A stretch of DNA of 64,000 nucleotides, taken from Naegleria gruberi (lineage: Eukaryota). Location of the stretch: NCBI GenBank assembly GCA_000004985.1, contig GG738859.1; one strand, given 5' to 3'. The stretch's first letter is position 1. Every line of letters starts with the position of its first letter. Positions 12,365 to 64,000 of this stretch are shown here, piece by piece. The position numbers were made by a program, and so were the translations under genes. The notes beneath the pieces are model-generated. The model saw nothing but the letters and a program-made list of their open reading frames with translations, was not told the DNA's origin and made no database searches.

Positions 12365-12437
12365 GCCGACATAGCTCAGTTGGGAGAGCGTAAGACTGAA
12401 GATCTTAAGGTCCCTGGTTCGATCCCTGGTGTCGGCA
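12365..12437 (+). tRNA. tRNA-Phe (GAA)
   Basis: GCCGACATAGCTCAGTTGGGAGAGCGTAAGACTGAAGATCTTAAGGTCCCTGGTTCGATCCCTGGTGTCGGCA. Cloverleaf with 7-bp acceptor stem, GCTC/GAGC D-stem, TAAGA/TCTTA anticodon stem and loop CTGAAGA. T-arm CCTGG/CCTGG has one T:T mismatch (human tRNA-Phe has T:G there). Followed by a TTTT Pol III terminator (12441..). Confidence 0.85.
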
Positions 12438-31993: not shown

Positions 31994-32442
31994 AAGACAT
32001 TATCATTACCAACATATACAGGTTGTGCCAACTTACATTGGTTTTCAACAGTCAATTATATCCCAAATTAAATATTTAATCCAAGAGCAACAACAAGGGA
32101 TTATTCAATATTAAAATATGAGAATTAAATAATTGTTAATTTATTCGAATCAACGTTTTTCAATGGTTGTTAAAAACCGTATTGGAAATGGGCGGTAAGA
32201 GCAAGCAAATAAATTTGCAACGCACGTTTAAATGTTCTCCCAATCTTCACAAGTTAAAAATAAAATTAGATCAAAACCAAAGCAAATCGTGATGATGGGA
32301 AGTCACGAATTTGCACAAATCTATTTTTTCACATGTGAAACATTTTGCATTAAGCTATTTAAACTGACTTTAGTTTCAGCACCATTTCTTCCAACACAAA
32401 AAAAACAAATACAACAACTGAAACACTCTAATCACGTTCAAT

Positions 32443-33549
32443 ATGCAAACAACTCAACTCACTTTCGATCAAATTAAATCCTCAATTCTCGTCTCTTTAG
32501 ATAAGAAGAAATCTGATCAACATTGTAAACTTCTTTTCGAACAACTTGTTGGAAAGTTTAAATTCAGAAATAACAAATATACCTTCTCGGGATCATATGA
32601 TCTTGCACAGTGGCTGGTTCTCTCTTTTGATTCAATGATTAAGGAAGATGAAAAGTTTTTCACAGAGATTGTCATTCCTATTGTTGCCTATATTTCAATT
32701 GTGGATGATGCTTGTGATGAGAACATGACTCTTTCGTCTATTGCAGAGATGAAAGAGCACTGTAAGATATTTAGAGGAGAACCAGTTTATGCTTCTCACC
32801 AAGCTCTCAAGATGGGACAATTTGTGTATAATCTTATCAAGGGAGAAAGATTCGAATGTATAAGAAGAAAGGTTTTGGAATTCCTGGTGACTGGAACTAA
32901 TCTAATTGTAAAGGCAAAGCAAGAATGTGAAAATGTCACTAAAGAAACATTGGAAAACTTTTTAGAGGATAGAAGAATTGACTCCATGGCATCACTTTTC
33001 TTTACAATTAATAATTTCTTTAAGAATATTCAAGAATTTGACAGATGCGATACTGTATCCACTTTATATAATCACAAGGCAAGTGACACCATCAGTTTAT
33101 TAAATGATGTTGCCTCCATTGCAAAAGATACCAAAAAGCAACTTGTTAACAATTATGTAATATTGAATAAGGGATTGAAAGAGAACTTGACATACACTCA
33201 ATTGAAACAACTCCCAATTGAAGCATTTGAATCATCCCTGAATGAAGTTTTAGAATTAATCAAAGACAATTTACTCCAAATGCAAACAATCAAATCCTCC
33301 AACCCATCCTACTCCACTCAATTCGATTCAATCGATGAAGTCATGAAGGGATATTGTACATGGTGTATCATTTCCAAAAGATTCCAACTTGAAAATCATC
33401 TCCTTCCTGAATATCATCCAAAGATGACATCAGGTGAGTTGAAGCCAGCACAAAAACCATGGGCTGATGATGATATGGATACTTATTTTGTTGATATTGA
33501 AAAATTCAATGAAGAACTTCTCCTCACTTTCAGAATATTGATGCTGTAA
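32443..33549 (+). CDS. class I terpene-synthase-like protein (microbial-type TPS fold candidate), 368 aa, single exon
   Basis: Asp-rich motif IVDDACDE (DDxxD/E) at ~aa 88. NSE/DTE-like motif LNDVASIAKD ~125 aa downstream. All-helical composition and a size typical of microbial/amoebal TPS. Assignment is by motif spacing only. Confidence 0.45.
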   Translation: MQTTQLTFDQIKSSILVSLDKKKSDQHCKLLFEQLVGKFKFRNNKYTFSGSYDLAQWLVLSFDSMIKEDEKFFTEIVIPIVAYISIVDDACDENMTLSSIAEMKEHCKIFRGEPVYASHQALKMGQFVYNLIKGERFECIRRKVLEFLVTGTNLIVKAKQECENVTKETLENFLEDRRIDSMASLFFTINNFFKNIQEFDRCDTVSTLYNHKASDTISLLNDVASIAKDTKKQLVNNYVILNKGLKENLTYTQLKQLPIEAFESSLNEVLELIKDNLLQMQTIKSSNPSYSTQFDSIDEVMKGYCTWCIISKRFQLENHLLPEYHPKMTSGELKPAQKPWADDDMDTYFVDIEKFNEELLLTFRILML

Positions 33550-34068
33550 TCACACTTGCCTTCTCACTTGTACAATTTTGTAAAATATCTCAGTGTAAAT
33601 AATAAATATCATGTAATTGAAATAATTAATAATTATAATTTGACAACTTTCCAGAGAAATTCAAGGAAAAGTGAGTGAAAACTTGGAATGAATATAAGCC
33701 TGTCAATAATGGCTCATTCAAATACAATGAAGTTTTCAAATATTTCATCATGAACATTAGTAATCATGTTGCTCAATCAGAAGAACAACGCGAGAGAGCT
33801 AATAAACTTGAAAGAATAAGGAGTTCCAATAGAAGAGAGTTGGGTCTTTGCAGATGTGATGAGAGTGTGATGATAATCTTGATAAATGTAACGCTTGTGT
33901 TCTCAAGAATGCAGAGCAAAAGAGAGTTCCTGTCTTTTGTGTTATGGTATTCCATTGATGATGAAAAGATGTAAATATTCTTGCTTAATATTAAATAACA
34001 AGTGGGTGAAAGATAATATTGATTATTGAAAAACTAAAAGTGAATTGAGAAAAGATCCAAAAGTCAGA

Positions 34069-34149
34069 CGCAAACTGCAGGATTTGAACCTGCGAGGGTT
34101 TCCCCACGAGATTTCGAGTCTCGCGCCTTAACCTCTCGGCCAAGTTTGC
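34069..34149 (-). tRNA. tRNA-Ser (CGA)
   Basis: Reverse complement: GCAAACTTGGCCGAGAGGTTAAGGCGCGAGACTCGAAATCTCGTGGGGAAACCCTCGCAGGTTCAAATCCTGCAGTTTGCG. It has a 3-bp D-stem, anticodon loop CTCGAAA, a long variable arm, T-stem GCAGG/CCTGC and discriminator G. A TTTT run follows on the minus strand. Confidence 0.85.
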
Positions 34150-42950: not shown

Positions 42951-44629
42951 ATGAAAACTCTTAAGACAGTTACCTTGCTGGCTTCAAAACAACAAACTAC
43001 AGCCAGAGCCTTCTCCACTACAACTTTAATAACATCCCAGAAATGTCCACATTTAAATTCCGAATCCTCCTCAGAAACATCAACATTAAACAAACAACCA
43101 TTGAAAAGATTTGATGAAATGCCAGGCCCTAAGGGATTACCAGTCCTTGGAAATGCTCTTGAATTGGCCAAACATGCCAACAATCCAGTTCAATATTTTA
43201 CTGAATTGGCTGCTAAATATGGTGATATGGTTAGAACTAGGGTTTTCAATGAAAAGATGGTTTTATTATCTGATCCTCAATTAGCTCGTGTCTTGTCTAG
43301 AGAAGAGGAGGGAAGAATCACTCTCAAAGCTGGAAGACATTACTCCCTCGACAGGGGATATCCACTCATTCCATTATTTGCTTATACACATGAGAATTGG
43401 AATGACATGCGTCAAGTTTTAAATGTTGCTATGAAGCCACAATTTGTTAATGAGATTATTCTTCCACAATTAACTGAATTGAATAGTGATTTATTACAAG
43501 ATATCATCAAACATTTCAAATTTGATAAGGAAAGACAACAGTTCTATATTGAAGATCCAAATAGAGATGTCACAAGCCCGTATGCATTTGGCAGTGTATT
43601 GAAATCAATTCTTGGTGGTCGCTTATCAAAAGAAAAATTGAGTCAATTTGGTTTCACAGTGCGACAATTCATTGACGATGGAAATGTTGGTGCTGATCTC
43701 ATTACAAAACTTCAATATCTTCCACAAATTTACAAATATTACAAAACCAAAGATTACAAAGAATTTGAAAGAGTTTTGGATTTGACTCATACTAGAGTTG
43801 AACGAATGATGGAACTCTATAAGGAAAATGAAAGTGGAAAGGCAAGATTAGTGGAATATTTTGAAGAAAGAGCAAAGGAAAGTAATATGGATTCAAAATG
43901 TGTTGGAGCATGTACTGGAGCTCTGTTCAATGCTGGAACTGATGTTACTGCCAAAGTTTTGGCTATTTTGCTTTACAGAGTAGCTAACGAGAAGGATTAT
44001 GCTGATAGGATGTATGAAGAGCTAGTGACTGTATTTGGAGAACCAACTTTGGATGAAATTACAAGTGAGAATGGACTTGTTGTCACTTCAGAAGACTTGA
44101 AACAATTGAGATTGTGTAAGAATTTCATAGATGAAGTACTGAGGGTTGATCACATTATTCCAATCAGAAATACAAGATATCTCTCAAAAGATATTGAACT
44201 GGGAGGTTATCTTTTAGAAAAGGGAACATTAATCTCCTTTCTGGATGAACTTAACACGCAATCAAAATATGTTCCAAGAGGTTGTGAATTTTTACCAGAT
44301 CGCCATGAGAAGGGATCTGATTTGAGTGAACCAAAGGGTTATCTTGGACCATTTGGTCGTGGTGCTCGTAAATGTCCAGTAAGTTTCAAGTTTAACAATT
44401 AATTCATTAATCGAAAATATAGGGAGAAAGAGTTGCTGGAATTGAAGTTTATTTGACCTTGATTAATGTAGTGAGACATTTCAAATTAGCTCATTCAAAT
44501 GGTGATCAATTTCCTCCATTGTCAGCTGACAAGTCAATGATGTTTATGGATGCTTCAAAGTATAGATTATTCTTCACTCCAAGAGACCATTTAATTAATC
44601 ATTTAAAACAATTAAACAAGTATCAATAA
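42951..44629 (+). CDS. cytochrome P450 (mitochondrial-type presequence), 2 exons, ~544 aa
   Basis: Exon 1 42951..44378, intron 44379..44422 (GTAAGT..ATATAG), exon 2 44423..44629. Presequence MKTLKTVTLLASKQQTTARAFSTT. Pro-rich hinge PGPKGLPVLGN. The heme-binding loop spans the intron: FGRGARKCP|GERVAG (FxxGxRxCxG). Confidence 0.85.
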
Positions 44630-48303: not shown

Positions 48304-51300
48304 TTATTTTTGGAGAAATATTCTAAAATTGCTAAGAACTTCTTCTAAGTTACCTCCAGTTTCATTAATCATTTTACTACCCTTCGCATAATTCTGCTCG
48401 ATATCCAATCCATACATGTATATTACTCCTAACTTTTGCTTTGCATCTATATCACTATCGTCAAATTCAAGAGCCCTTGTATACCACACAAAAGCTTCCT
48501 TGAAATCATTCTTAAATGCATGAAAATCTGCAAGAATCGTCATGCTGTCTTTAACTTGCATTTCTATTGCCTTATTGATCCAATACAAGAATAGTGCGTC
48601 GTCTTGATCCACTCCCTCGCCATGCATATATGAAATAGCAACATTTTTCATTGAATTACTGTCCCCAATAAGTGCAGCTTGTAAGCTGTATTGGAAAGAT
48701 TTTTGAAGATTATCTGAGTCGAAATAAATGGTTGATAATTTTGTCATGCAATATATATTTCCCAATTCGGCTCCTTTGGTGTAGTAAGGGATGGGATCAC
48801 CATTCGAATTGAAATAGTAATAATCTCCTAGTTTCATAAATGCTTCATCGTTGTTGTGAAGAGAAGATCTTTCGAATAATGAAAGAGCTTTTTTCAAGTC
48901 TTTCTCATATCCGATTTCAACACTTCCAATTTCGTACAATTCGCCCAAGTAGTTGAGAGCAGGACCATAGTCGTATCTAGCTGCTAGCTCTATTAATTTT
49001 AGTCCAAACCTTTCGTTTGATAAAACCTTGGACTTTCCAAAATCGAAGCAAGCTTTCGGATCAAAAAGAATTTTGTTCCTTACTTGCTTCACCTCTTGTA
49101 GTACAGTAATAAGAGTCTTTCCAAAAAGTAAATTAATTCCCAATTCTAATTGTAAGCCTTCTTGAGCAGCACAAAACAATTCTTGTTTCAAAAACTCTTC
49201 ATAATTTGGCATTTCAGAGTTGATCTCATAAACAGAACAGGAAAAGTCAATTTTCAGTTTCTTTGGTACCAATTCTCGATTAGTAAATTGTGTTTCATCA
49301 AACCCAGATATAAACAGAACATGCTTGTTGGATATCACGGATTCAATTGCAGTTTTCATTCCGCTTTCTGATAAATTTTGAATGGTTGTTTTAAGATTGA
49401 ACAAAACTAGCTCTTTTGATTGGATCGTAAAAAATTCGTACATTAAATTGAAAAACTCTGCAAGAAACTGAGCTCTATGTTTGATAGTAAGTGCTCTCCC
49501 AATAAATTCGCTTATTTTCTTCATGATTTTTTCTCCAAAATTATTGGAAGTATTTGCAAGTAATAGGTCGAAAATCTCCAATCTAATACTTTCCAAAATG
49601 TGATCCTTATCATTTTGTACAGATATGCGTATATTGTGCTCTTTCAGTTCCAGAGTTTTAGTTATGCAATCAACCATTTGTTGATATACTTCAGAAGCAA
49701 GAGAAGAGCTTTTTTTCAAGGCACCTCTTTTCGATTGATGGTAGTGAGGATATCCAGGGAAATTATCTATAAATCTCAAATCCTCTTCTCTAGTTGCTAC
49801 AGAAATTACACCATTCTTTGGAGAGCCCACTGCATGATTGACAATTTCACAAAGTCTTCTCATTTCCTTATTCCAATTTTCATCATTTGTCCAGTTAGAT
49901 CCATGATGGTCTACGTAGGCATGTCTTACTCCAACCCAATCTTTAAAAACATCTGGTTCAAATGGACGAATATCTTCTTGTTTGATTTCTTCATCAAACA
50001 AGCCAGGTTCAAATATTTTGACATTATCTACAATTAAATCATCCCAGCATACAAAGAATTGATCTCCGTCCAAATCTGATCCTGATATCATATTTGGTAC
50101 AGGTCTTTTACCTTTTGATGAAAAAACAATAACATCACACAAGTGAGATAATTTGGGATAGTAAACTGCTTTGATTTTTCTCAAGTCACCTCTATGAAGA
50201 CAAGGTTCTTTTGTCAATACAATTTCTTTCTGTAGAACTTGTTTGTGACTTGGATTTTTAAATGAAGAAATCTGAACAAATACCTCTCCTTCATTGAGGA
50301 CTTCATAAGGATCTACCACTCCATATAATCTTCTTGAATTTGAGAATGGAATTTTCAATGATGTTATGAGACTCTTGTATGGACCAGCCAGAAATGCAAA
50401 TCCTTTGTTTTTTGTGGTTGAGAGAACATTAAGGGAAATCAAATTATTATCTTTCATATATTGCCTCGCAATAACTTCAGTATCTTCATGAACGTATTTG
50501 TCTAAAGAGTTTTGAACGTGAGCAGATGCCATCTCTAATACTCTCTTTCTCACTTCTCCGTTAGAATCACATCCACTCAGTAAGTGCATGATTGTAGAGT
50601 TGACTCTTGTTAATTCGCATGGACTGGAATGACCAACTATTTGAAGAGTGCTAAAACTTTGGTCAACTTTTTCATTAGTTTTACATTTGACCATTGATTC
50701 TCTCAGTACAATGTGAACTCTATACTTTTCAAATGTTTCAGTATTAACAACAAGCATTCCTTTTGCTCCTCTAAATCTAATTTGAAACGCTGAAGGAATG
50801 TAAGAGCTATCAGAAAACAAATCAAAACCACGTTGCTCATCATATCCAATTTCATCTTCCTCTTGATCAGTTTTTATCAAAACTCTATTTTCGGCATTCA
50901 AGATGTGTTTGTAAACTTTCTTAGCCATGTCTGGAGAAATAAATCCACAACCATCTGTAAAGTTGAAACCATCTCTTTCAATATCTGGAATTACTGTGAA
51001 ATATTGAATGATTTCTGTTGGGATCACTGGTGTATTATAAAGAGCCAATCTAATTCTCTGCTTTAATATATTTTTCGAATCATACAGAGTTGGATTAAGC
51101 TCTTTAGGAATTGCCCATTCTTTAATTTGTTCAACAGTTGAGAGCTTTCTTGTTGGATCCTGCGTATTTGCTAATTGAGGGCAACAATACACATACTTAT
51201 ATGAATGCATTCCACTAGTATTTTGGCAAAGAATATTAAATTGATATTTTCCAAATTTGAAAGGTAATGGATTGATATTGTCTTTAAATGCTTTCTTCCA

Positions 51301-52071
51301 AGTTATCAACTCATTTCTAAATCTTGATTGATGTTTCAATTTCTTGATGTACTCCTTATCAAACACATCATTAATAATATCAGTATCCTGTTTCAGAATT
51401 TTCATTTTGGTCAACAGGAAGAAAAAATCGATTTCTTCAAAGCTAAATGGATTGAGAATAGAACCATTCATTTGTTCATCTCGAACCATTCTTTGAGATT
51501 TCAATCCCATTCTCGAGAATATAAACGATACATTCAATATGCAATCACCTCCAAACTCTTGTCTAAATCTTCCAATAACAAAATTGTCTTTTGGTGAGCT
51601 TTTAAATATAACACATAGCTCTGCTTTCTCAGCAGCAATAAAAGAATAGAACGTAATTGACCTCATTCTACTCAATTTCAATCCTGCCCTTCCATCAGAA
51701 TACGATTTATCATCTTTTCCTTCCAAAAACCAGTTGTTGATACTTTCCAAACCTTCGGGGTAGGTAACTATTACCTTCTTACTAACTTTCTTCATTAATT
51801 CGAATCTCTGATCGAAGGACATACCTGAATAACCTTCCCCTCTGAGATGACTCAATCTGGCAAGACAAATACCAGCATCATGTTCATTCCGAATCAATGG
51901 AAGTGTTTTATTTCGAGAAAGATGATAACAGTAGAAGAGATTATCTATTAATTGCTCGGTGGACGAATTTGCTGTTGTTTGATTGTTAGAATCATTCTGT
52001 TTGAAGGGCATTTCATGGTTTTTGTTAATGGAGAAAAGTTTGGGAAGGTTTGCAGTGAATTGTGTGAACAT
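48304..52071 (-). CDS. cellular RNA-dependent RNA polymerase (RDR/QDE-1 family) fused to C-terminal Sel1-like repeats, 1255 aa, single exon
   Basis: ATG 52071..52069, TAA 48306..48304. RdRP catalytic region ..PCLHRGDLRKIKAVYYPKLSHLCDVIVFSSKGKRPVPNMISGSDLDGDQFFVCWDD (DxDGD motif; cf. plant RDR ..VVFPQKG.RPHPNECSGSDLDGD.YFVSWD) at ~50050..50095. The last ~230 aa are Sel1/TPR-like repeats (..AISYMHGEGVDQDDALFLYWINKAIEMQ..; ..LGVIYMYGLDIEQNYAKG..). Confidence 0.85.
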   Translation of the reverse strand: MFTQFTANLPKLFSINKNHEMPFKQNDSNNQTTANSSTEQLIDNLFYCYHLSRNKTLPLIRNEHDAGICLARLSHLRGEGYSGMSFDQRFELMKKVSKKVIVTYPEGLESINNWFLEGKDDKSYSDGRAGLKLSRMRSITFYSFIAAEKAELCVIFKSSPKDNFVIGRFRQEFGGDCILNVSFIFSRMGLKSQRMVRDEQMNGSILNPFSFEEIDFFFLLTKMKILKQDTDIINDVFDKEYIKKLKHQSRFRNELITWKKAFKDNINPLPFKFGKYQFNILCQNTSGMHSYKYVYCCPQLANTQDPTRKLSTVEQIKEWAIPKELNPTLYDSKNILKQRIRLALYNTPVIPTEIIQYFTVIPDIERDGFNFTDGCGFISPDMAKKVYKHILNAENRVLIKTDQEEDEIGYDEQRGFDLFSDSSYIPSAFQIRFRGAKGMLVVNTETFEKYRVHIVLRESMVKCKTNEKVDQSFSTLQIVGHSSPCELTRVNSTIMHLLSGCDSNGEVRKRVLEMASAHVQNSLDKYVHEDTEVIARQYMKDNNLISLNVLSTTKNKGFAFLAGPYKSLITSLKIPFSNSRRLYGVVDPYEVLNEGEVFVQISSFKNPSHKQVLQKEIVLTKEPCLHRGDLRKIKAVYYPKLSHLCDVIVFSSKGKRPVPNMISGSDLDGDQFFVCWDDLIVDNVKIFEPGLFDEEIKQEDIRPFEPDVFKDWVGVRHAYVDHHGSNWTNDENWNKEMRRLCEIVNHAVGSPKNGVISVATREEDLRFIDNFPGYPHYHQSKRGALKKSSSLASEVYQQMVDCITKTLELKEHNIRISVQNDKDHILESIRLEIFDLLLANTSNNFGEKIMKKISEFIGRALTIKHRAQFLAEFFNLMYEFFTIQSKELVLFNLKTTIQNLSESGMKTAIESVISNKHVLFISGFDETQFTNRELVPKKLKIDFSCSVYEINSEMPNYEEFLKQELFCAAQEGLQLELGINLLFGKTLITVLQEVKQVRNKILFDPKACFDFGKSKVLSNERFGLKLIELAARYDYGPALNYLGELYEIGSVEIGYEKDLKKALSLFERSSLHNNDEAFMKLGDYYYFNSNGDPIPYYTKGAELGNIYCMTKLSTIYFDSDNLQKSFQYSLQAALIGDSNSMKNVAISYMHGEGVDQDDALFLYWINKAIEMQVKDSMTILADFHAFKNDFKEAFVWYTRALEFDDSDIDAKQKLGVIYMYGLDIEQNYAKGSKMINETGGNLEEVLSNFRIFLQK

Positions 52072-56994: not shown

Positions 56995-59230
56995 TTGAAA
57001 TATTCTTTTCTTAGTGAACTTTGCTTGCATCATAATTATTAAGGAATTGTTTCAAGTAGATGGAAAGTGTTCTAAAATTGCTGTAGATGGTAACATTCCG
57101 TTACAGCATAGTTAAATTCTAAGAAATGATTGAGATTTGTGATTTTTTCACAACTGTTATCTTTTAAACAATGGTTGTCATCCAACCCGATGTAAAAACT
57201 TTTTGAAATTGTTTCAAATGAGCTTGGAGTGGCTCAAACCCGTTGCTTCTTTTCAAAAAAGAGACTTATCCAACCTTTTGAATGAGACTGTATTATACTA
57301 TACAACAAACTGAAATTTATTCTTTCTTACTGAACTTTTCTTACTTCACAATTATTAAGGAATTTTTTCAAGTAGATGGAAAATGTTCCAAACTCGATGG
57401 AAATGGGGGCAGTCCTTTTCAGTATACTCAAAATCTCAATAATGATTGAGATTGGTCGATTTTTCACAACTGTAATCTTTAAAACAGTGGTTCCAACCCG
57501 CTTGTGGAACAAATTGAAATTGTTTCAAATGAACATGGTGGGGCTCAAACCCGTTGCTTCTTTTCGAAAGAGTGACGTAGCCAACCTTTTGACAAGACTG
57601 TATTATACTATACAACAAATTAAAATTTTTGCATTCTTACTGAACTTTTCTTACTTCACAATTATTAAGGAATTTTTTCAAGTAGATGGAAAATGTTCCA
57701 AAATCGATGGAAATGGTGGAAGTCCTTTAAAGTGTACTTAAATTCTCAATAATGATTGAGATCAGTCGATTTTTCACAACTGTAATCTTTAAAACAGTGG
57801 TTGTCATCCAACCCGATGTAACAACTACTATTAAATATTTCAAATGAGCTTGGAGTTGCTCAAACCCGTTGCTTCTTCTCAAAACAGTGACTTATTCAAC
57901 CTTTTGGTGGGGATTGTACAATAATGTTCAACAAATTAACATTGTCTTTTCTTAGTGAACTTTTCCTTCATCCTAATTATTAAGGAATTTTTACAAGTAG
58001 ATGGAAAATGTTCAAAACTGGCTATAGATGGTATAATTCCATTGAACTATACTCAAATTCTTAATAATGATTGAGATTGGTCGATTTTTCACAACTGTTA
58101 TCTTTGAAACAGTGATTTCATCCAACCACGCTTTAATAACAACTCCATGGACTGGCTCAAACCCGTTGTAAAATTAAATTAAACTTTCTCAAATGAGCTT
58201 GGCGTGGCTCAAACCCGGTGTGCTTACGTAAAATTCAATCGGAATACAATTTTAACTGGTATTCTGGCAAAGAGCCAACATTTTCACAATTAAACTTTCT
58301 TACTGAACTTTGAATATTTCACATAGTAAGGAATTTTTTCAAGTAGATGGAAAATGTTCCAAACTCGATAGAAATGGTACCAGTCCTTTACAGTATACTT
58401 AAATTCTCAAAAATGATTGAGATTTGCCATTTTTTCACAACTGTAATCTTTAAAACAGTGGTTGTAATCCAACCCGCTTGTGGAACAATTTGAAAAGGTT
58501 TCAAATGAGCTTGGAGTGGCTCAAACCCGTTACTTCTTTTCAAAAAAGTTCCTGATCGAGCTATGTGGTGAGACTGTATTATAGTATACAACAAATTAAA
58601 ATTTTTGCATTCTTATTGAACTATGAATATTTCACAATTATTAAGGAATTTTTACAAGTGGTTGGAAAATGTTCTAAACTGTATGTAGATGGTAACATTC
58701 CATTGGAATATACTCAACATCTTAATAATGACTGAGATTAGTCGATTTTTCACAACTGTAATCTTTAAAACAGTGGTTGTCATCCAACCCGATGTAAAAA
58801 CTTTTTGAAATTGTTTCAAATGAACATGGATTGGCTCAAACCCGTTGCTTCTTTTCAAAAAAGTTCCTGATCGAGCAATGTGACGAGGCTGGAATATACT
58901 ATTCAACAAAGTAAATTGTTTGCAATCTTACTGAACTTTGAATATTTCAAAATTATTAAGGAATTTTTACAAGGGGATGGAAAATGTTCTAAACTGTATG
59001 TAGATGGTAACATTCCATTGGAGTATACTCAAATTCTTAATAATGATTGAGATCAGTCGATTTTTCACAAATGTTATCTTTAAAACAGTGGTTGTCGTCA
59101 AACCCGATGTAAAAACTACTTGAAATTGTTTCAAATGAACATGGTGTGGCTCAAACCCGTTGTAAAATTAAATTACACTTTCTCAAATGAGCTTGGTGTG
59201 GCTCAAACCCGGTGTGCTTATGTAAAGTTC
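56995..59230. repeat. subtelomeric satellite: ~310-345-bp unit, ~7 tandem copies, in two higher-order blocks
   Basis: The anchor CAAGTAGATGGAAAATGTTC(C/T)AAA recurs at ~57053, 57370, 57680, 57997, 58340, 58658 (variant) and 58969 (variant). Each unit also contains TTTCACAACTGTAATCTTTAAAACAGTGGTT and TTTCAAATGA(G/A)C(T/A)TGG.GTGGCTCAAACCCGTTGC. Two blocks (to ~58260 and to ~59230) each end with a duplicated GGCTCAAACCCG(T/G)TGT..AAATT motif. Track ORFs inside (57327.., 57376.., 57436.., 58388.., 58652..) are repeat artefacts. Confidence 0.75.
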
Positions 59231-60953: not shown

Positions 60954-62838
60954 NNNNNNNNNNNNNNNNNNNNNNNNNNNNNNNNNNNNNNNNNNNNNNN
61001 NNNNNNNNNNNNNNNNNNNNNNNNNNNNNNNNNNNNNNNNNNNNNNNNNNNNNNNNNNNNNNNNNNNNNNNNNNNNNNNNNNNNNNNNNNNNNNNNNNNN
61101 NNNNNNNNNNNNNNNNNNNNNNNNNNNNNNNNNNNNNNNNNNNNNNNNNNNNNNNNNNNNNNNNNNNNNNNNNNNNNNNNNNNNNNNNNNNNNNNNNNNN
61201 NNNNNNNNNNNNNNNNNNNNNNNNNNNNNNNNNNNNNNNNNNNNNNNNNNNNNNNNNNNNNNNNNNNNNNNNNNNNNNNNNNNNNNNNNNNNNNNNNNNN
61301 NNNNNNNNNNNNNNNNNNNNNNNNNNNNNNNNNNNNNNNNNNNNNNNNNNNNNNNNNNNNNNNNNNNNNNNNNNNNNNNNNNNNNNNNNNNNNNNNNNNN
61401 NNNNNNNNNNNNNNNNNNNNNNNNNNNNNNNNNNNNNNNNNNNNNNNNNNNNNNNNNNNNNNNNNNNNNNNNNNNNNNNNNNNNNNNNNNNNNNNNNNNN
61501 NNNNNNNNNNNNNNNNNNNNNNNNNNNNNNNNNNNNNNNNNNNNNNNNNNNNNNNNNNNNNNNNNNNNNNNNNNNNNNNNNNNNNNNNNNNNNNNNNNNN
61601 NNNNNNNNNNNNNNNNNNNNNNNNNNNNNNNNNNNNNNNNNNNNNNNNNNNNNNNNNNNNNNNNNNNNNNNNNNNNNNNNNNNNNNNNNNNNNNNNNNNN
61701 NNNNNNNNNNNNNNNNNNNNNNNNNNNNNNNNNNNNNNNNNNNNNNNNNNNNNNNNNNNNNNNNNNNNNNNNNNNNNNNNNNNNNNNNNNNNNNNNNNNN
61801 NNNNNNNNNNNNNNNNNNNNNNNNNNNNNNNNNNNNNNNNNNNNNNNNNNNNNNNNNNNNNNNNNNNNNNNNNNNNNNNNNNNNNNNNNNNNNNNNNNNN
61901 NNNNNNNNNNNNNNNNNNNNNNNNNNNNNNNNNNNNNNNNNNNNNNNNNNNNNNNNNNNNNNNNNNNNNNNNNNNNNNNNNNNNNNNNNNNNNNNNNNNN
62001 NNNNNNNNNNNNNNNNNNNNNNNNNNNNNNNNNNNNNNNNNNNNNNNNNNNNNNNNNNNNNNNNNNNNNNNNNNNNNNNNNNNNNNNNNNNNNNNNNNNN
62101 NNNNNNNNNNNNNNNNNNNNNNNNNNNNNNNNNNNNNNNNNNNNNNNNNNNNNNNNNNNNNNNNNNNNNNNNNNNNNNNNNNNNNNNNNNNNNNNNNNNN
62201 NNNNNNNNNNNNNNNNNNNNNNNNNNNNNNNNNNNNNNNNNNNNNNNNNNNNNNNNNNNNNNNNNNNNNNNNNNNNNNNNNNNNNNNNNNNNNNNNNNNN
62301 NNNNNNNNNNNNNNNNNNNNNNNNNNNNNNNNNNNNNNNNNNNNNNNNNNNNNNNNNNNNNNNNNNNNNNNNNNNNNNNNNNNNNNNNNNNNNNNNNNNN
62401 NNNNNNNNNNNNNNNNNNNNNNNNNNNNNNNNNNNNNNNNNNNNNNNNNNNNNNNNNNNNNNNNNNNNNNNNNNNNNNNNNNNNNNNNNNNNNNNNNNNN
62501 NNNNNNNNNNNNNNNNNNNNNNNNNNNNNNNNNNNNNNNNNNNNNNNNNNNNNNNNNNNNNNNNNNNNNNNNNNNNNNNNNNNNNNNNNNNNNNNNNNNN
62601 NNNNNNNNNNNNNNNNNNNNNNNNNNNNNNNNNNNNNNNNNNNNNNNNNNNNNNNNNNNNNNNNNNNNNNNNNNNNNNNNNNNNNNNNNNNNNNNNNNNN
62701 NNNNNNNNNNNNNNNNNNNNNNNNNNNNNNNNNNNNNNNNNNNNNNNNNNNNNNNNNNNNNNNNNNNNNNNNNNNNNNNNNNNNNNNNNNNNNNNNNNNN
62801 NNNNNNNNNNNNNNNNNNNNNNNNNNNNNNNNNNNNNN
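60954..62838. other. assembly gap (1,885 N)
   Basis: Uninterrupted run of n. The 641-668-aa all-X ORFs in the track across it are artefacts. Confidence 0.99.
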
Positions 62839-63649
62839 ATTGTGAACACAATGGTATCAATAGTTATATGATTCATGATAGTTTAAAATTGAGTTGGTCA
62901 TCTAAGGATAGGTCATTAAGGTTTGAATGAATTGATATGAAATTCAATACCAATTATTGAAATACCATGACTAACTGATCTATATATGATGCTATAATTG
63001 AAAGATTTTAAAATTAATATGATTTGATTATCTTGATATTCATTATTCCCATGATTACACTCCTGACATGTTGAATGATATCAAATTGTCATGAAACTGA
63101 TACAGTAGTGTTCATTCACCTTTTGTAAGGTACTGTATCAATTTCATAATGATCTGTAAAGTAGATGTCATTGTCACATCCCTGTAGGTATCAAGTGGAT
63201 CTGCCATGTACCATGTATGATATGGATGAATATCAAAATGATATTACTGTATTTCATTATCATGTGTAGATGTATTGGAAGTGAATTGAAGTGGTATAGA
63301 TTTCTATCTTCAATGTTAGTATAGGTCAGTTGACAAGTTGAATAGCAAATATCCTGAAATGATACCAAAGTATTTGAAATTGATATATATTGTTATTAAC
63401 ATGATTTATAAGGTGATATATTGATTTGAAATGAATTTGAAATGTTTTCATTGATATTTTAATTGTCTAATCTATTATATGAAATTAACTTATATAAGAC
63501 ATGATAATGATGTAATATTATGTTATATTATGATTATATATTCAATTTGGAGTATATTGATATATAATATATTGATTTATAATGAGTATTTATTGAGATA
63601 ATTAATTAAGATGAATAAAAGTCAAAATGTTGGGTCTGACCTTAGTCGT

Positions 63650-64000
63650 GGGTTTGGGTTTGGGTTTGGGTTTGGGTTTGGGTTTGGGTTTGGGTTTGGG
63701 TTTGGGTTTGGGTTTGGGTTTGGGTTTGGGTTTGGGTTTGGGTTTGGGTTTGGGTTTGGGTTTGGGTTTGGGTTTGGGTTTGGGTTTGGGTTTGGGTTTG
63801 GGTTTGGGTTTGGGTTTGGGTTTGGGTTTGGGTTTGGGTTTGGGTTTGGGTTTGGGTTTGGGTTTGGGTTTGGGTTTGGGTTTGGGTTTGGGTTTGGGTT
63901 TGGGTTTGGGTTTGGGTTTGGGTTTGGGTTTGGGTTTGGGTTTGGGTTTGGGTTTGGGTTTGGGTTTGGGTTTGGGTTCGGGTTTGGGTTTGGGTTTGGA
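63650..64000 (+). repeat. telomeric repeat (GGGTTT)n, ~58 units, running to the window end (chromosome terminus; G-rich strand 5'->3' toward the end)
   Basis: Perfect hexamer array from 63650. One variant unit GGGTTC at ~63974..63979. Preceded by AT-rich unique sequence and the satellite. Confidence 0.9.

Follow-up and report, generated by a model that had tools for sequence, protein, structure and literature searches.

Does Naegleria gruberi encode a genuine terpene synthase (TPS), and if so, of which kind and with what likely function? This question is raised by an open reading frame (ORF) at 32443..33549 on the plus strand of the window, that is, the whole stretch of 64,000 nucleotides from contig GG738859.1 (assembly GCA_000004985.1) that was analysed. 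The ORF begins with ATG, runs uninterrupted through a single exon and encodes 368 aa followed by a stop codon, intact and exactly as the earlier note had read it. Its product is 100% identical over 100% of its length to the N. gruberi 'predicted protein' XP_002679043.1 (P0001; synonyms EFC46299.1, NAEGRDRAFT_65839 and UniProt D2VAF3) on a 530-kb scaffold, and the public gene model is the identical single-exon ORF. The GC content of the ORF (0.32) is the same as that of its flanks, and the surrounding genes, which specify RGS-domain, p24/GOLD and C2-domain proteins, an RNA-dependent RNA polymerase and tRNAs, are all ordinary eukaryotic ones; contamination is therefore ruled out as the source. 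Within the C-terminal tail, a consensus-like 5' splice donor, GGTGAGT, is present at 33433..33439 (codons 331-333), in the region where paralogue P0003 carries an insertion and where the AlphaFold model described below is unreliable. An alternative C-terminus produced through this donor is conceivable, although the annotated model has no intron there.

The protein carries the motifs by which class I terpene synthases are recognised. An aspartate-rich DDxxD motif, D88-D-A-C-D92 (32704..32718, plus strand; followed by E93, within IVDDACDE), sits on the helix of residues 70-93 and presumably coordinates two of the three Mg2+ ions; DDACD is invariant across seven of seven Naegleria homologues and aligns with DDQFD of BcBOT2, a characterised fungal cyclase. 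The second metal-binding motif, of the NSE/DTE type, is N221-D-V-A-S225-I-A-K228-D229 (33103..33129, plus strand; within LNDVASIAKD). The distance from D88 to N221 is 133 residues, and about 127 residues separate the end of the first motif from the start of the second, so that both motifs named in the earlier note are where it put them and its spacing of about 125 residues was a fair estimate. N221, D222, S225 and K228 are invariant in the Naegleria family, whereas position 229 is Asp in six members and Glu in one. The motif of the ORF thus ends in Asp, not in the usual Glu; since NDVASIAKD aligns with NDVLSYRKD of BcBOT2, in addition to NDIASLEKE of pentalenene synthase, the Asp-ending variant is, as judged from the alignment, one that occurs in an enzyme of proven activity. 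Between the two motifs lies R177-R-I-D180-S181 (32971..32985, plus strand), a candidate diphosphate-sensor Arg with its linker Asp and effector residue. R177, D180 and S181 are invariant in the Naegleria family, and R177 stands 44 residues before N221, close to the roughly 45 residues upstream of the NSE motif at which a sensor Arg is sought, and aligns with an Arg of BcBOT2; R177 is therefore a plausible diphosphate sensor. Finally, R313-F314 (33379..33384, plus strand) stands where the C-terminal 'RY' pair that binds diphosphate is usually found, with the Arg kept and the usual Tyr replaced by Phe. It aligns with the RY of BcBOT2 (KRF versus GRY) and of pentalenene synthase, and with R304 and residue 305 of trichodiene synthase; RF is found in five of the six full-length Naegleria homologues and RY in P0007.

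Could two short acidic motifs have arisen by chance in an unrelated helical protein? Both are indeed short and degenerate. The pattern DDxx[DE] with [ND]Dxx[ST]xxx[ED] 110-170 residues further on, though, appeared only 97 times in 100,000 shuffles of the protein (~0.1%), so the pair is unlikely to be due to chance alone, a roughly 1-in-1000 event. With a Pfam match above threshold, profile matches to solved terpene synthases and a fold match added to this count, the probability of a coincidence becomes negligible, and this explanation is already refuted by the Pfam, profile and fold evidence that follows.

In Pfam, residues 81-240 match PF19086 (Terpene_syn_C_2) with 35.1 bits (gathering threshold 23.7; E 1.5e-8), a tag that public databases already attach to the protein. 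This was the only significant Pfam match, and no polyprenyl synthase family was matched even at E <= 10. In the HMM search that the earlier note had proposed, the PF19086 threshold was thus exceeded; neither PF03936 nor PF01397 was matched at E <= 10. The older PF03936 model is matched by paralogue P0007 and not by the ORF protein. A plant-type terpene synthase, which would combine PF01397 with PF03936, was considered and rejected, as these Pfam matches are lacking and the protein consists of one alpha domain. In NCBIfam, the sole match was isoafricanol synthase, which was non-significant (E 0.081). P0002, P0003 and four distant Naegleria relatives (P0004-P0007) all pass PF19086. A profile built from seven Naegleria homologues and searched against PDB sequences returned significant matches almost exclusively to class I terpene cyclases, the best being BcBOT2 (8h6q; E 1.3e-6 over profile positions 61-326), with pentalenene synthase (9e-6), T-muurolol synthase (2e-5) and trichodiene synthase (2.6e-4) also among them. 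In the seven-protein alignment, in which subgroups share only 23-25% identity, the invariant positions include D88, D89, A90, C91, D92, R177, D180, S181, N221, D222, S225 and K228, the positions at which a class I terpene synthase should contact metal and diphosphate.

Structure prediction leads to the same family. AlphaFold2 run with three close paralogues alone gave an unusable model (pLDDT 47.7); with the seven-sequence alignment, to which four distant Naegleria homologues had been added, it reached pLDDT 80.6 and pTM 0.82, with a confident core at residues 5-328 and an unreliable tail at 329-368. DSSP assigned only helices to the confident model, which bears out the all-helical character read from the sequence earlier. 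In a Foldseek search against the PDB, each of the top 50 matches, at probability 1.00 and with a target-normalised TM of 0.63-0.76, was a class I terpene synthase of microbial type, and the prediction that the earlier note had called for thus yielded the class I terpenoid cyclase fold. The fold comparison figures were 28.1 for LrdC, 26.6 for T-muurolol synthase, 26.1 for selinadiene synthase, 25.5 for Copu9, 24.5 for BcBOT2 and 24.1 for pentalenene synthase. An isoprenyl diphosphate synthase, i.e., a chain-elongating prenyltransferase, would share both the alpha-helical isoprenoid synthase fold superfamily and a DDxxD motif with this protein. Its second motif, on the other hand, would be another DDxxD on the opposing helix and not one of the NSE type, and neither the Pfam search nor the top fold matches contained such an enzyme; this assignment is effectively refuted. 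The original interpretation as a microbial-type class I terpene cyclase is therefore supported by the PF19086 score, the PDB profile matches and the fold alike. We assign a probability of about 0.85 to the reading that this intact N. gruberi gene encodes a microbial-type class I terpene synthase with a single, alpha-only domain.

Going further, we infer that the enzyme is active, and also which chain length it accepts, what it makes and what role it plays in the amoeba. The function of the terpene synthase would most likely be the Mg2+-dependent ionisation and cyclisation of farnesyl diphosphate (FPP) to a sesquiterpene. The substrate would be a prenyl diphosphate, most likely (E,E)-FPP drawn from the mevalonate/sterol pathway of the amoeba. 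Its diphosphate would be clamped by a trinuclear Mg2+ cluster liganded by D88 and D92 of the DDxxD motif and by the NSE-type triad N221, S225 and D229, with R177, K228 and R313 supplying extra contacts. Closure of the active site would then trigger loss of diphosphate and leave an allylic cation, which would be cyclised in the hydrophobic helical pocket and quenched to give a sesquiterpene hydrocarbon or alcohol, probably a volatile one. FPP is the likeliest substrate because the nearest solved relatives by sequence are sesquiterpene cyclases, and because the protein is about as large as a single-domain sesquiterpene synthase. The best structural match, though, is a diterpene synthase, and the choice of FPP is therefore tentative. 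Alternatively, a protein of this fold might not be a cyclase at all: it might transfer the prenyl group to an acceptor, or release acyclic products only, of the linalool/nerolidol type. DabA, for example, is an N-prenyltransferase that moves a prenyl cation onto an acceptor. Such a function has a small probability here, given that the best solved profile relatives (BcBOT2 and the pentalenene, T-muurolol and trichodiene synthases) are true cyclases and that the ORF contains the canonical cyclase motif set, with RF at the RY position. Those related amoebal enzymes, dictyostelid ones among them, whose function is already known make sesquiterpenes by cyclisation (PMC6156593), which argues against a non-cyclase function and is a further reason to favour FPP.

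The genomic surroundings show no biosynthetic cluster: near the TPS, there is no gene of the isoprenoid pathway and none for a prenyltransferase. A cytochrome P450 gene encoding 483 aa is located 9.4 kb downstream (42951..44402, plus strand; PF00067 E 3.4e-45), separated from the TPS by a tRNA gene and genes for a p24/GOLD protein, two proteins of unknown type and a C2-domain protein. Its assignment as CYP51 (sterol 14-demethylase) was rejected, its best PDB match being CYP3A5 (E 3e-12). This P450 could be a tailoring enzyme for the TPS product, but a functional TPS-P450 cluster in the window is speculation. Two tRNA genes were identified by ARAGORN: tRNA-Ser(CGA) at 34069..34149 on the minus strand, 520 bp beyond the stop codon of the TPS, and tRNA-Phe(GAA) at 12365..12437 on the plus strand, upstream of the TPS. 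An ORF at 48304..52071 on the minus strand encodes an RNA-dependent RNA polymerase of 1255 aa with a C-terminal Sel1 repeat (PF05183 E 3.6e-81), presumably that of an RNAi pathway. Farther downstream, the window takes on subtelomeric features. At 58297..59161, a 315-bp unit is repeated in tandem (2.8 copies, 86% matches), and the last positions, 63649..64000, are taken up by TTTGGG (TGGGTT as the unit reported) repeated head to tail about 58 times; the G-rich strand reads 5' to 3' toward the end. This array looks like a telomere, which puts the TPS gene some 30 kb away from what seems to be the end of the chromosome. The low GC content (14-19%) at 60-64 kb was rejected as a real compositional feature, as it and the spurious long ORFs at the window end are artefacts of a 1.9-kb run of N at 60955..62838, an assembly gap.

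The gene belongs to a small family. The N. gruberi genome has at least five TPS-like genes, the ORF among them. Paralogue P0003 is 68% identical and 389 aa long, and paralogue P0002 has 83% identity across a match that covers 83% of the query, with a model of 322 aa whose C-terminus is scrambled after 'MKGYC'. When 1.84 billion cluster representatives were searched exhaustively with phmmer, E <= 1e-3 added four further proteins, every one with PF19086 and all from Naegleria: XP_002671422 (about 403-418 aa) and XP_002668501/XP_002680653 (341 aa) of N. gruberi, and the long proteins XP_044568115 of N. fowleri (865 aa) and XP_044541884 of N. lovaniensis (891 aa). No protein from outside Naegleria was found in that search. 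Word-indexed searches with single-sequence, 3-sequence and 7-sequence profiles returned only N. gruberi proteins, and a scan of bacterial and archaeal genomes gave no relative of the ORF protein. One metagenome match was discarded as spurious, being the antisense strand of a bacterial LysR-type gene (L004). By these searches, the ORF appears to belong to a divergent clade confined to Naegleria.

Is this copy of the gene still functional? A metagenome contig (L002; ENA ERZ929261, positions 192-1575) holds a copy that is 90.7% identical in DNA to 32197..33592 of the window, including 246 bp upstream of the ORF. Between the two, dN/dS was 0.41 overall (Nei-Gojobori), with 0.24 for residues 1-92 up to the DDxxD motif, 0.60 for residues 93-215 and 0.15 for residues 216-368 from the NSE motif to the end. 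The differences cluster in residues 93-215, both ends being nearly identical. By this codon comparison, the motif-bearing segments are clearly under purifying selection. In the middle section, where constraint is weaker, the pocket may have diversified, or gene conversion may have left a mosaic, and the pattern of differences suggests mosaic evolution or gene conversion among paralogues. The protein of the environmental copy (P0013) is full length and clusters with paralogue P0002 at 90% identity or more; since this counterpart is complete, the truncated 322-aa P0002 model probably reflects an error of annotation or assembly, or else a lesion peculiar to the strain. These data bear on the proposal that the ORF is a dead or decaying paralogue, a pseudo-enzyme or young pseudogene of a recently expanded subtelomeric family. 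In its favour, one could cite the deviations from consensus (the NSE motif ending in D, and RF for RY), the distance of about 30 kb from the telomere-like repeat, the damaged C-terminus of the sister model P0002 and the dN/dS of 0.60 in the middle third. Against this stand the intact ORF, the retention of all metal- and diphosphate-binding residues, which are invariant over homologues only about 24% identical, and the dN/dS of 0.15-0.24 across the motif-bearing segments. Moreover, active BcBOT2 shares the D-ending motif, and the truncated paralogue has a full-length environmental counterpart. Decay is thus very unlikely, and an intact, selected terpene synthase gene is the reading that we retain.

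The N. fowleri and N. lovaniensis homologues (P0010 and P0011; 865 and 891 aa) have a distinct architecture, in which the TPS domain is fused to a C-terminal membrane domain with His boxes (HKTHH ... HAIHHEF). The N. lovaniensis version of this domain is a match to Pfam FA_desaturase (E 4.9e-8). In N. fowleri, the fusion is encoded by a single uninterrupted ORF of 2598 bp (L001:6290-8887; contig of ENA ERZ2098899), and 2 kb downstream of it lies a gene for a short-chain dehydrogenase. Synteny between the window and this N. fowleri locus was considered and rejected, the TPS itself being the sole match. The fusion may be a bifunctional terpene synthase-oxygenase, and no paper on it was found in the literature searched. 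A broader proposal would be that a divergent TPS lineage restricted to Naegleria makes new terpenoid scaffolds or signals and couples them to oxidation, through the P450 of a subtelomeric mini-cluster in the window and, in N. fowleri and N. lovaniensis, through the desaturase fusion; we regard this as unlikely. The desaturase-fused relatives in the pathogen N. fowleri may be of more interest than the ORF itself.

How does the ORF compare with known systems? As cited in PMC6902781, the N. gruberi TPSs treated there were taken from Chen et al. 2016 (PNAS 113:12132), so the presence of TPS genes in N. gruberi is already published; PMC6902781 also states that these TPSs cluster with dictyostelid TPSs and Physarum TPS1/4, with fungal TPSs nearest. 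The supplement of PMC6902781 contains no Naegleria accessions. In the literature searched, the identifiers of the ORF are uncited and no assay of any Naegleria TPS is reported. The ORF is, in short, a known kind of gene that is biochemically uncharacterised. Its significance lies in the host: canonical genes for class I terpene synthases are confirmed in an amoeboflagellate of the Discoba, a group remote from plants, fungi and Amoebozoa, and N. gruberi therefore probably makes terpenoid secondary metabolites, a point already made in the amoebal TPS literature.

Among solved enzymes, the bacterial cyclases T-muurolol synthase (9hqd), selinadiene synthase (4okm), pentalenene synthase (1ps1) and LrdC (6oh6) are 8-13% identical to the ORF protein. 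Unlike them, the ORF comes from a eukaryote, shares the GC content of its host and stands among eukaryotic genes, and no close bacterial homologue was found. BcBOT2, the presilphiperfolan-8-beta-ol synthase of Botrytis cinerea (PDB 8h6q) and a class I sesquiterpene cyclase, is about 12-14% identical and has RY where the ORF has RF; no product can be inferred from this likeness. In Dictyostelium, DdTPS8-CYP521A1 forms a terpene synthase/P450 gene cluster (PMC6524965). The window resembles it in having a P450 gene near the TPS on the same strand, but differs in the 9.4 kb between the two, which hold four or more unrelated genes besides a tRNA gene. A close parallel is with the amoebal TPSs (dictyostelid DdTPS/DpTPS and PpolyTPS1/4), which are likewise single alpha-domain class I enzymes of about 340-400 aa, encoded by multi-copy genomic families in free-living amoebae. 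In contrast to these, the ORF and its two close paralogues have diverged so far that phmmer (E <= 1e-3) finds only Naegleria proteins, and while the hosts of the other amoebal TPSs are amoebozoan, Naegleria is a heterolobosean (Discoba).
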